DNA of 64,000 nt. Origin: Byssovorax sp. Its GTDB lineage: Bacteria; Myxococcota_A; Polyangia; Polyangiales; Polyangiaceae. Location: contig JAXLYT010000035.1 in NCBI GenBank assembly GCA_046351295.1, forward strand, positions 13,452 to 77,451, given 5' to 3'. Below the pieces are notes generated by a model, which did not search any database, was not told the origin of the DNA, and was given only the letters and a program-made list of their open reading frames with translations. Below, piece by piece: positions 33,689 through 36,392 of this stretch. Each line of letters opens with the position of its first letter. Positions within the stretch are counted from its first letter, which is position 1. The position numbers and the translations under genes were made by a program.

Positions 33689-34858
33689 TCAGCGCTTGCC
33701 GGGAGGTGAGACGAAGGGGGCGACGCGGGCGTGCTGCTCGATCAGCGCGAGCTTGCCGCGGGCCTGGAGGAGCTTGCGGATGGCGGTGATGTGGATGCCC
33801 TCGTTGTGCCAGTCATCGTTGTCATTGGACCCGCTGCCTTGATGCATGGCAACGAGGTTCCAGTGGGCATCAAAGCAGGGAGCACCTCCGGAGCCAGCAA
33901 GAGTGTTGGTCGTATACCGAACGATCGTCTCGCTCGTGCTCACATCGAGCACAGATTGAGTGTTCAAGGAGAGTTTGAGGGGGCCACCGCTGGGATGATG
34001 GAGCATGAACAACGGAGCGCCAGGTTCCAGCGCGGCAGCGGACGGAAGGGGGATCCATCCTCTGGGTTGAGTTCCTCCGGGCGAAGACAGGGAGCTCCCG
34101 GGCGAGTCTGCAACCCGAAGCAGGGCATAGCCCAACTCATCTCCCGGACGACGGTTTGGGGCCAACGTGTCGTCGAGTGTGTCATAAGGAGATACGTCGA
34201 TCAACCAATCTGTGGCGAGATGATATTCGGTGCCAGCGTTGATCTTACCGTCGCGATCTCGTTGATAACCGAAGCGAAGTCGTACGGCCGAAATTTGCGC
34301 CGGGTGTTCGATGACCTCTTGCATGATGTTATAGGTCGTAAGCACCACATCTGGACCGACGAGGAACCCTGTCGCATAGCCTCGGCGCGTGCCCCCGCTA
34401 TCGACCCGGCAGACTCGGCTTGCGTGGGCGCTCAGCACGTCGACAAACGAAGACACATCGTAAAACATGTCGTCTCCCACCAGCCGCGTGGGCTCGGGTA
34501 TGTGCGCGACCCTGTACACCCCACTCCGGCCCGACCAGAAATCCGGCGCCGCCTCGGCGAAGAGCGCCTCCGTCTCCGGGGCCATCACGAGGAGCAGCGG
34601 CGCCCTCAGCCGCTTCACGATCAGGTTACGCGCCCGGTTCATCCGGTGGAAGACCCCCGCCCAGAGGCCGCGCTGCGCTGCGTGGATCGCCTCTGCATGC
34701 AGCACGACGATCTCTCCTTCGTCGGGAGGACCACTCCGCTCCTCTGCGAGGCGCAGAGGAATGCTCGATTCGAGCCCATCCTCGCTCGCTGCCCCGCCGG
34801 ACAGCTCTGAAGGGTTGATGTGTGTCCACGCGACTTCCCTCCCCCGGCCGGCGAGCAA
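33689..34858 (-). CDS. trypsin-like (chymotrypsin-fold) peptidase-like protein with ~170-aa N-terminal unknown domain; catalytic triad apparently degenerate
   Basis: The C-terminal domain has GFLVGPDVVLTTYNIM, ELGYALLRV and TLAGSGGAPCF blocks. These parallel the S1/HtrA-type motifs TNAHV, DIALLKL and GDSGGP. The GSGG block is kept, but His and Asp look substituted. The true start may lie upstream, at 35039 in another frame (see findings). Confidence 0.55.
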   Translation of the reverse strand: MLAGRGREVAWTHINPSELSGGAASEDGLESSIPLRLAEERSGPPDEGEIVVLHAEAIHAAQRGLWAGVFHRMNRARNLIVKRLRAPLLLVMAPETEALFAEAAPDFWSGRSGVYRVAHIPEPTRLVGDDMFYDVSSFVDVLSAHASRVCRVDSGGTRRGYATGFLVGPDVVLTTYNIMQEVIEHPAQISAVRLRFGYQRDRDGKINAGTEYHLATDWLIDVSPYDTLDDTLAPNRRPGDELGYALLRVADSPGSSLSSPGGTQPRGWIPLPSAAALEPGAPLFMLHHPSGGPLKLSLNTQSVLDVSTSETIVRYTTNTLAGSGGAPCFDAHWNLVAMHQGSGSNDNDDWHNEGIHITAIRKLLQARGKLALIEQHARVAPFVSPPGKR

Positions 34859-35045
34859 GCTCCCCGACCACGTCGAGCACCAGGGGGACTTCTCCAGCAG
34901 GCGAGTAGACCAAGATATGGAGAGAAAACCCCTCGGCCAGCGCGAGGGAGCGGACGAGGCTCTTCAGCGATTCGTCCTCGCGAAGGCTCTGCCTGCGATC
35001 GCCCTCTTCGACCTTCGGTGCTTGCTGGAGGATAGCCATGGACCT

Positions 35046-36392
35046 TCAGGTCCTCTTTTTTGCCTTCTCGATCGCCGGCTGCATTGCTGGCATTGTGGAT
35101 ACGACCGGGTGCAGATCGAACCACTCCTCGTCATTGAGATAGCACATCACCAGGTTGTTCTGGAGCATCCTGCTGACGATCTCGCGCTGCTCCTCGCTGT
35201 CGAGCGGCAGGCGCTTGCTCGCTTCCACCTCGGCGAGCCACGGGAAAGCATAGTCTGGCACCGTGCGGCGGATCGCGTCGGAGTGCATCTGCAGCGTTCG
35301 GCGGAAACTCTGCTCGCTGATCGAGCCGTCGAGCGCCTCCTCGATCAACGAGCGGAGCAGGCGGACGATCTCCCGCGGGTAGCCTCCTGACCACTCGATC
35401 ATCCGGCGCAGCCTGTCGGCCATCGTAGTCGGACCCAGGATCTCGTTCAGGATCGGACGGGGCACCCGTTTCTCGATCAGCTGGAGGGCCGCGCCGTACC
35501 CGGGCTCGAACGTCTTGCCGTCGCGGTCCTTGAGCTTGACCATCGGCATGAACCACAGGCTGTCGAAGCGAAGCCGGGCGATGAGCGCGGGCGGGATCGT
35601 GTAGATCACGTGCACGGGGAGCTGGAGGTATGGCGCGCCGTTGGCGAAGACCGCCTCGGCGCTCGCCAGCACGTTCGGGAAATTGGTGCTCATCCCTTGG
35701 AGCTTCTCCAGCGAGTCGAGGATCACCACCAGTCGAGCGCGACCGAGCGCCTTCGCCCTCTTCTCCAGCGACATGAACTCGGTCTGTACTTCTGCCACGA
35801 ACTGCCGGAGATGAGCCGACACCACGGCCCGGATCTTCTGCCGCACGGTCTGCCGTGTCTTGAGCTCGAGCGCGAGCTTCGCGCTTGCGTCGTCGCCACC
35901 GAGGCCGAACTCTGCGCCCGTGAGCGTCACGTCCGTGCGCGAGAGCCACGTCCAGAGGCGGCGCATTGGTCCGTCGCGGAGCGCGTCGGCCGGCTCGCGC
36001 CCCTCGGCGACGAGAACTTGTCGTTCGGTCTCGTAGAGCAGTGCAATCAGGATGTCGGGAACGTCGACCTCGTCGGCGAGATCGATCAGCTCTTCAGCGT
36101 TGGCGATGACCGTCAGGAAGTTGGAGCCCCCGGCATCCTTGAGCTGTGCGGCGAGGCGGAGCAGCTCCGTCGACTTGCCCGAGCCCGGGAGGCCCGAGAA
36201 CATGCACTGCACCGGGCGATCCGCCAGGATGACCTGCCGCGCGAGGCGATCGACCCAGCGGACGCCGCGGACGTAGTGCCCATCCGGCGTCCGTTCGTCG
36301 AGGTCGACGTTGCGATCGTCGCTGGGCTCGAGCTCCTCGAACGGATCGCAGCGATTGTAGTACTTTTTGAGCGTCTTCAGATCGAGCGCCAT
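35046..36392 (-). CDS. P-loop NTPase, AAA+-like ATPase (ORC/Cdc6- or PF01637-like architecture)
   Basis: Walker A FSGLPGSGKSTELLRLA and Walker B RLVVILDSLEKL are present. The C-terminus is helical. The protein is 448 aa. Confidence 0.7.
   Translation of the reverse strand: MALDLKTLKKYYNRCDPFEELEPSDDRNVDLDERTPDGHYVRGVRWVDRLARQVILADRPVQCMFSGLPGSGKSTELLRLAAQLKDAGGSNFLTVIANAEELIDLADEVDVPDILIALLYETERQVLVAEGREPADALRDGPMRRLWTWLSRTDVTLTGAEFGLGGDDASAKLALELKTRQTVRQKIRAVVSAHLRQFVAEVQTEFMSLEKRAKALGRARLVVILDSLEKLQGMSTNFPNVLASAEAVFANGAPYLQLPVHVIYTIPPALIARLRFDSLWFMPMVKLKDRDGKTFEPGYGAALQLIEKRVPRPILNEILGPTTMADRLRRMIEWSGGYPREIVRLLRSLIEEALDGSISEQSFRRTLQMHSDAIRRTVPDYAFPWLAEVEASKRLPLDSEEQREIVSRMLQNNLVMCYLNDEEWFDLHPVVSTMPAMQPAIEKAKKRT

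Follow-up and report, generated by a model that had tools for sequence, protein, structure and literature searches.

We describe a two-gene module on the minus strand of a 64,000-nucleotide (nt) stretch of Byssovorax sp. DNA (GenBank assembly GCA_046351295.1, contig JAXLYT010000035.1, positions 13,452 to 77,451; hereafter the window), in which a P-loop ATPase gene is followed by a partner gene whose product joins a new N-terminal domain, here called the N-domain, to a chymotrypsin-fold domain that has lost its catalytic triad. The gene structure and folds of this module, the loss of the triad, the conserved adjacency of the two genes and the range of domains fused to the N-domain are established here. 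Comparison with related sequences makes a conflict system a plausible interpretation, and we favour, with modest confidence, the view that the locus is one copy of an unnamed, horizontally spreading, immunity-like conflict module centred on a nucleoside triphosphatase (NTPase).

Gene structure and conservation of the pair

Both genes of the pair are read from the minus strand. Their features, in window coordinates, are the following.

35046..36392, minus strand: ATPase gene, intact, 448 amino acids (aa)
36168..36194, minus strand: Walker A motif GLPGSGKST, residues 67-75, invariant in 19 homologues
35706..35729, minus strand: Walker B motif VVILDSLE, residues 222-229, of the NACHT-like hhhhDxLE form
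35040..35045, minus strand: spacer AGGTCC, 6 nt, from the TGA stop of the ATPase gene to the ATG of the partner
34842..35039, minus strand: 5' segment of the partner gene, frame A, residues 1-66 of the reconstructed 449-aa protein, matching positions 2-64 of the N-domain hidden Markov model (HMM)
34841..34845, minus strand: homopolymer of five G (G5) carrying one extra base (+1 frameshift); four G (G4) would keep ...ARRPG-REVAW... in frame
33689..34840, minus strand: 3' segment of the partner gene, frame B, residues 67-449 and stop
34502..34988, minus strand: new N-domain, ~160 aa, alpha/beta, five beta-alpha units, from alignment A3, with motifs LxLAEGF, W..F.RMN.ARN and APDFWSxRS
33845..34375, minus strand: chymotrypsin-fold (Trypsin_2) domain, catalytically dead
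34328..34330, minus strand: catalytic His position, Asn (AAC) in LTTYNIM, by profile alignment to V8 TNKHV
34130..34132, minus strand: catalytic Asp position, Gly (GGC) in ELGYALLRV, by profile alignment to exfoliative toxin A VDLALIRL
33887..33889, minus strand: nucleophile Ser position, Gly (GGA) in AGS-G-GAP, by phmmer alignment to SplB GNSGSP and profile alignment to V8 GNSGSP

The gap between the two genes, given as 7 nt in an original prediction made for this stretch, measures 6 nt. The same spacing is found at locus L018, and the genes overlap by 13 nt in the relatives L001, L029 and L030. A 6-nt spacer fits translational coupling, and gene 2 is probably coupled to gene 1.

An N-domain gene directly follows the ATPase gene on the same strand at all 13 complete genome loci (L004-L016), and again in L001, L018-21, L022/23, L024/25, L029, L030 and the window; L017 holds a truncated ATPase remnant with no partner. 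The specific pairing of the ATPase with a pseudoprotease, on whose conservation in other genomes the original prediction had staked its case, recurs in L001, L018-21, L029 and L030. ATPases paired with pseudoproteases are 64-80% identical to that of the window, as against ~50% for those paired with tetratricopeptide repeat (TPR) proteins, so the ATPase and its partner have been inherited as a unit. The distribution of the ATPase is patchy, spanning Myxococcota, Zoogloea, Thiodictyon, Thermoanaerobaculia and WOR-3 at ~47-51% identity. The module can also decay: in L002 (6283-6340) and L003 (4094-4151), the ATPase gene has been deleted down to its last ~55 nt, which lie just upstream of an apparently solo partner gene (P0002), beside an Uma2 gene, and such decay is typical of costly systems.

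Several related loci show further arrangements. At L013 (5842-6882, a Nannocystaceae metagenome-assembled genome, or MAG), the canonical pair has another ATPase paralogue immediately upstream, divergent in sequence but recognized by the family HMM at E 5e-38. The TPR-type module of L024 (800-15320) stands beside a BrnT/BrnA toxin-antitoxin pair, a TIR-NACHT-FGS protein and a diversity-generating retroelement composed of bAvd, a reverse transcriptase and FGE-sulfatase targets. On cyanobacterial plasmids of Nostoc and Acaryochloris (L026, L028), ATPases 25-29% identical to that of the window are followed by ~1800-aa WD-repeat proteins whose N-termini give a weak match to the N-domain HMM, as a divergent copy would; on the Acaryochloris plasmid the neighbourhood includes a NACHT gene, an integrase and the HicAB toxin-antitoxin genes.

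The ATPase

The intact first gene encodes the 448-aa NTPase that had been proposed, with its Walker motifs and helical C-terminus at the expected places on the minus strand. Its product is 100% identical to P0021, a hypothetical protein of a Byssovorax sp. MAG. Alignment of 19 homologues reveals 70 invariant columns, among them G67, L68, G70, G72, K73, S74 and T75 of Walker A and D226, S227 and L228 of Walker B, where E229 is nearly invariant. The AlphaFold2 model is confident (predicted local distance difference test, pLDDT, 86.7; predicted template modelling score, pTM, 0.85), places Walker B on the strand formed by residues E221-226 and has a helical C-terminal half. The modelled fold resembles those of ORC/Cdc6, archaeal ATPases, TnsC and STAND NTPases, and from the model we assign the protein to the ORC/STAND-type AAA+ switches, with a probable helical lid and winged-helix-like C-terminus.

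Curated profiles give the protein no name. In Pfam all matches are below threshold, namely AAA_16 (19.4 bits, cut-off 32.6), nSTAND_NTPase5 (15.2, cut-off 34), nSTAND3 (11.4, cut-off 27.2) and AAA_22. A scan of NCBIfam returned nothing significant, the weak match being to ATPase_Sll1717 (E 0.023), and a sequence-profile search of the PDB was uninformative, as it matched SRP GTPases over the P-loop alone. No sensor repeats (TPR, WD40 or LRR) are found in the ATPase polypeptide, which ends at residue 448; repeats are carried by the downstream protein. A housekeeping identity as a KaiC/RecA-like or secretion ATPase was considered and rejected in favour of the ORC/STAND-type switch, in line with the original prediction.

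The N-domain and its fusions

The N-terminal ~170 aa of the partner had been called unassignable, but they belong to a large, unnamed domain family. An exhaustive profile search recovered no fewer than 1308 representatives at a threshold of E<=1e-3, of which 349 reached E<=1e-10. No match to the domain was found in Pfam (at E<=10), in NCBIfam or in a PDB profile search, and none of 13 N-domains matched the Pfam EAD models (EAD1-EAD10) even at E<=10. The invariant motifs of the family are LxLxxGF, W..F..N..RN and APDxWSxR. In the AlphaFold2 model of P0002, the domain is predicted at a pLDDT of ~90 to run in the order alpha0-beta1-alpha1-beta2-alpha2-beta3-alpha3-beta4-alpha4-beta5.

The N-domain is always N-terminal, in proteins of ~135-922 aa. 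A Pfam scan of 94 of these assigned a C-terminal TPR region to at least 49 and a TIR_2 domain to 6. Other fusions are to sigma-70 region 4, EAD5+EAD1, EAD7/EAD1, NACHT with or without pentapeptide repeats, SAVED, AAA_35, a calcineurin-like phosphoesterase (Metallophos) and an amine-oxidase-like region, and one 14-member cluster of N-domain proteins has no Pfam match. The N-domain is, in short, a small non-enzymatic terminal domain fused to many different effector and signalling domains. Fusion to a trypsin fold is rare, being confined to P0002-P0005, or 4 of ~150 representatives. The pairing of an NTPase with a protease, which the original prediction had taken as the core logic of the system, therefore gives way to a different one: the constant parts are the ATPase and the N-domain, and the trypsin fold is a rare swap-in.

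The secondary-structure order of the N-domain is collinear with the ATPase core, and its invariant Arg precedes beta5, where the arginine fingers of AAA+ proteins sit. A non-significant profile-profile alignment sets beta1 of the N-domain on the P-loop strand of the ATPase. A second copy of the adaptor within the ATPase family was sought twice with hhalign, the second time with 149 and 120 sequences, and neither attempt was significant (probability 0.3-1.3%, E 0.04-0.22). The collinear layout and the placement of the Arg suggest that the N-domain may be a degenerate AAA+ subunit.

A catalytically dead trypsin-fold domain

The C-terminal half of the partner has the chymotrypsin double beta-barrel fold and matches Pfam Trypsin_2 (E=1.4e-13), which bears out its proposed likeness to S1 peptidases. 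The replacement of the catalytic His and Asp, also proposed, is borne out by Asn in LTTYNIM and Gly in ELGYALLRV. The serine of the GSGG motif had been thought to be kept as the nucleophile; G-S-G-G-A-P, however, aligns gaplessly to G-N-S-G-S-P of SplB and V8, placing Gly in the nucleophile column and the serine at position -1.

Relatives within the clade have GSAGAP at the nucleophile block. At the three triad positions (His/Asp/Ser) the window has N/G/G, P0002 has F/N/A and P0003-P0005 have H/D/A, so the loss of the nucleophile is ancestral to the clade, and the window copy has lost His and Asp in addition. The pseudoprotease clade is still under strong conservation: its five sequences share ~110 invariant columns, and the ratio of nonsynonymous to synonymous substitution rates (dN/dS) between L018 and L002 is 0.17 over the first 85 codons. 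More distant relatives of the trypsin domain are EAD1-fused trypsin-like peptidases, of which several (P0008, P0009, P0012) also lack the serine. An ordinary secreted HtrA-like protease, which the original prediction had likewise disfavoured, was rejected, since no triad remains and the protein begins with a cytoplasmic adaptor domain; no search aimed at signal peptides or PDZ domains was made.

The frameshift in the partner gene

In the window the partner occupies two minus-strand open reading frames (ORFs), one of 137 aa in frame A, from the ATG at 35039 to 34626, and one of 389 aa in frame B (+1), from 34858 to 33689. As had been suspected, they are a single 449-aa gene split by one extra G. 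The gene was reconstructed by deleting one G from the GGGGG run at 34841-34845, which yields 449 aa reading ...VVGELARRPG-REVAWTHINPSEL... across the site. The reconstructed protein aligns over 98-99% of its length with the single-ORF homologues P0002 (55% identity), P0003, P0004 and P0005. The N-domain HMM matches both frames in the window, at 34985..34800 (model 2-64) and at 34855..34505 (model 46-165), and downstream of 34845 the GC content at third codon positions (GC3) is 0.52 in frame A versus 0.74 in frame B. In L018 (contigs L018-L021), which holds the closest relative of the window ATPase, at 80% identity, the partner ORF is uninterrupted at the site, reading CGCGGGAGG against CCGGGGGAGG in the window. 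A scan of the window for GC3 frame switches returned only normal gene junctions and shadow ORFs and missed the known shift, so it is uninformative on the error rate.

The public annotation of this gene, P0001 (33689-34705), takes an internal GTG as its start and so covers just the last 338 aa of the partner, under the name "serine protease". It is wrong on two counts, since the gene was truncated by an unnoticed frameshift and the protein is non-catalytic.

Frameshifted copies are common among MAG records of the ATPase family: the homologues at L015 (7001-8021, a Thiodictyon MAG) and L016 (7004-8315, a Thermoanaerobaculaceae MAG) each lie in three reading frames.

The partner gene of this assembly is either mis-sequenced or recently inactivated. 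We consider it an even call whether the extra G is a homopolymer error of sequencing or assembly in a MAG, the organism itself carrying an intact gene for 449 aa. The shift maps exactly to the G5 run and G4 restores the frame; the source record is a MAG, as are the records with the split ATPases of L015 and L016; and the remainder of the gene retains every residue that is invariant in the family. Homopolymers are, however, just as prone to real slippage mutation, and a related lineage has genuinely lost its ATPase (L002/L003). That lineage, in which the module is seen to decay, also speaks for a genuine and recently inactivated pseudogene, in a module that would be a decaying relic without function in this strain. 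The frameshift falls within the N-domain, and the window copy is alone in its clade in having every triad position replaced, His and Asp being retained in P0003-P0005. Against this, the lesion is single, with no further stops or indels in 449 codons and the conserved motifs intact; the ATPase gene shows no damage; and the serine is missing throughout the clade, a loss hence older than this copy. We regard inactivation as a serious possibility that falls a little short of even. An active protease with non-canonical residues, or a programmed +1 frameshift regulating expression, which the original prediction had left as an option, is very improbable: Ser383 is retained beside the nucleophile position and the shift sits in a slippery-looking G run, but the gapless alignment puts Gly in the nucleophile column, Asn in that of His and Gly in that of Asp, clade relatives carry GSAGAP, and P0002-P0005 and L018 are single-frame with a different sequence at the site, so that no conserved frameshift signal exists and programmed frameshifting was rejected.

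Genomic setting

The pair lies between the genes for a major vault protein (MVP) homologue and cofH, and not, as had been stated, between MVP and an Uma2 gene; the latter (39195..39932) is ~3 kb beyond, past cofH and cofG. The cofG and cofH genes are upstream on the same strand, and the MVP gene is downstream and convergent. The GC content is 0.59-0.65 over 33250-35250 versus ~0.70 in the surroundings; the module has a GC content of 0.63-0.65 and a GC3 of 0.72-0.86, versus a GC3 of 0.95 in the flanking MVP and cofH genes. This composition, unlike that of its surroundings, suggests that the module was acquired horizontally downstream of cofG/cofH. A repeat search around the module found no direct repeats bounding an island, and a promoter and terminator scan found nothing exceeding shuffled expectation.

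The convergent gap between MVP and the partner contains, at 33495-33590, an inverted repeat with 31-nt arms, 94% complementary and separated by 34 nt, in which the 8-nt unit TTTGCG(T/C)C is repeated in tandem. A bidirectional terminator is one possible role for it, an element of the repetitive extragenic palindromic (REP) kind another. The MVP homologue itself (30566-33436, plus strand) is a 956-aa protein from a myxobacterial MAG, with an MVP shoulder domain (E=1.3e-16) and Vault_3. It is preceded by a gene (29798-30499, plus strand) for a 233-aa protein rich in Pro, Gly and Gln, with a hydrophobic C-terminus and no Pfam match.

Interpretation

The picture that we modestly favour, a conflict module, would work as follows. 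The ATPase would serve as a nucleotide-driven switch or oligomerization engine, and the N-domain would be the adaptor that docks the partner to it. The C-terminus of the partner is interchangeable, mostly TPR and otherwise TIR, SAVED, NACHT with repeats, EAD1/5/7, sigma-70 region 4 or a metallophosphatase. This variable part would sense the trigger, members with TIR and phosphoesterase domains would execute the response, and the signal would be transduced by ATP-dependent assembly of the ATPase. One sub-clade would have swapped TPR for a trypsin-fold domain taken from EAD1-linked trypsin-like peptidases. Because that sub-clade has no serine nucleophile and the window copy no triad, the dead domain most likely retains its cleft for substrates and, instead of cleaving, binds peptides or proteins as a sensor or decoy.

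A conflict or defence system had been put forward in the original prediction, and that part is plausible from the N-domain fusions to TIR, SAVED, NACHT and EAD; the support expected from PADLOC did not materialize, as PADLOC-DB v2.0.0 has no family matching the ATPase or either partner ORF at E<=1. Further points in favour are the conserved adjacency of the two genes, the intact STAND/ORC-like ATPase, the loss of the triad in a clade that is still strongly conserved, the plasmid-borne relatives and the toxin-antitoxin and NACHT genes near some of the related loci, the EAD1 on relatives of the trypsin domain, the combination of a constant NTPase and adaptor with hypervariable modules, the patchy spread across phyla, the occasional decay and a composition unlike that of the host.

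Other observations weigh against a conflict system and are shared with a non-immune alternative, namely a housekeeping or developmental signalling switch in which the ATPase works with a TPR scaffold in the manner of MalT/AfsR and the pseudoprotease is a protein-interaction module. Plain TPR proteins make up most of the partners, so that the ATPase is paired with no obvious effector; some partners carry the helix-turn-helix of sigma-70 region 4, which would suit a transcriptional regulator too; and the ATPase, in which 70 columns do not vary across 19 sequences, shows more conservation than is usual in immune genes. The window neighbours are metabolic or structural (cofG/cofH, MVP), with no defence island, and the context of L022 is likewise metabolic. 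The lack of a PADLOC match points the same way, and a search of a phage collection gave no match to the module. Since effector-free TPR partners are the majority, the ATPase is conserved and the neighbours are metabolic, such a switch is a live rival, but we hold it unlikely: fusions to TIR, SAVED, NACHT, EAD1/5/7 and metallophosphatase domains typify conflict systems, the module is patchily distributed across phyla, with plasmid-borne relatives and atypical composition, and it is not universal within any lineage seen.

A more specific version of the conflict module can be drawn from the layout of the N-domain. The latter would be a degenerate AAA+ core that lacks the P-loop, keeps a trans-acting Arg (in APDFWSxRS) and co-assembles with the ATPase as a hetero-oligomeric switch. 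The family would then be an undescribed, widespread "split NLR" form of immunity in which sensor or effector modules are exchanged on the inactive subunit, and the dead trypsin fold would be a decoy or substrate-mimic sensor, whose trigger might be a phage inhibitor of proteases or a phage protein directed against proteases of the host. We offer this as a speculative proposal and hold it improbable.

If the locus is indeed a conflict module, it represents an uncatalogued two-gene family of >550 ATPase clusters and >1300 partner representatives in at least 5 phyla. It would be an NTPase-centred immunity design in which a new adaptor separates the nucleotide switch from the sensor or effector. 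In the pseudoprotease clade, bacteria would have turned a protease fold into a sensor or decoy without catalysis. The literature searched contains no paper describing the pair of ATPase and N-domain partner. The family also offers a compact system for studying how ORC/STAND-like ATPases are coupled to interchangeable TPR, TIR, SAVED and NACHT modules.

Comparison with known systems

The window ATPase shares with STAND NTPases (NB-ARC, NACHT and AAA_16, including Avs and bNACHT) the P-loop core, Walker A and an acidic Walker B. It differs from them in scoring below the thresholds of the curated models and in having no sensor repeats in the same polypeptide. Chymotrypsin-fold pseudoproteases such as SMIPP-S of the scabies mite, HGF, haptoglobin and protein Z are secreted eukaryotic proteins; the window domain, in contrast, is cytoplasmic and bacterial, and is fused to an ATPase-linked adaptor.

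EAD-coupled conflict systems (Kaur, Burroughs, Iyer and Aravind; eLife 2020, PMC7159879; eLife 2021, PMC8195603) include EAD1-trypsin and inactive-enzyme effectors, and inactive enzyme domains acting as decoys are a described theme (PMC7159879, section 35). The module resembles these systems in joining a constant core to a small non-catalytic terminal adaptor and highly variable domains; its trypsin domain is closest to EAD1-fused peptidases, and some N-domain proteins carry EAD1, EAD5 or EAD7. It differs in that the N-domain matches no Pfam EAD and no MoxR, vWA, VMAP or GAP1 core is adjacent. The pairing would, moreover, be heterotypic and not homotypic, as no second copy of the adaptor is detectable in the ATPase. 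A MoxR-vWA-iSTAND ternary system was considered and rejected, the neighbours in the window being cofH and the MVP homologue and no third conserved neighbour being present at the related loci examined (MoxR and vWA genes were not specifically searched). The module has neither adjacent MoxR or vWA genes nor a match to a Pfam EAD, and its ATPase contains no detectable copy of the adaptor; it falls outside every family defined by Kaur et al., as it does outside those of PADLOC.

Two reports on antiviral immunity describe Avs2-trypsin-MBL and nuclease-protease pairs in which an active protease activates a partner effector (bioRxiv 10.64898/2026.08.25.746987; PMC12799240). The likeness is the combination of an NTPase or immune sensor with a trypsin-fold domain, and the difference is that the window domain lacks the triad and has neither a nuclease nor an MBL gene beside its own.

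The closest published analogue, compared by its description, is a mobile two-gene operon in which an active STAND NTPase is joined by a second one with eroded nucleotide motifs, with GT4 or HEPN effectors (PMC8195603, section 15). Its second protein keeps a conserved Arg and has variable C-terminal modules; the family is described as Dap3/CR-ATPase-like, each of the two proteins having a complete STAND module. Neither GT4 nor HEPN was found in the N-domain representatives scanned individually or among the 25 commonest Pfam families of the batch scan. The second module in the window differs in being only ~160 aa long, with a putative homology to NTPases, and resembles the eroded subunit in the collinearity of its five beta-alpha units with the ATPase core and in the invariant Arg before beta5.

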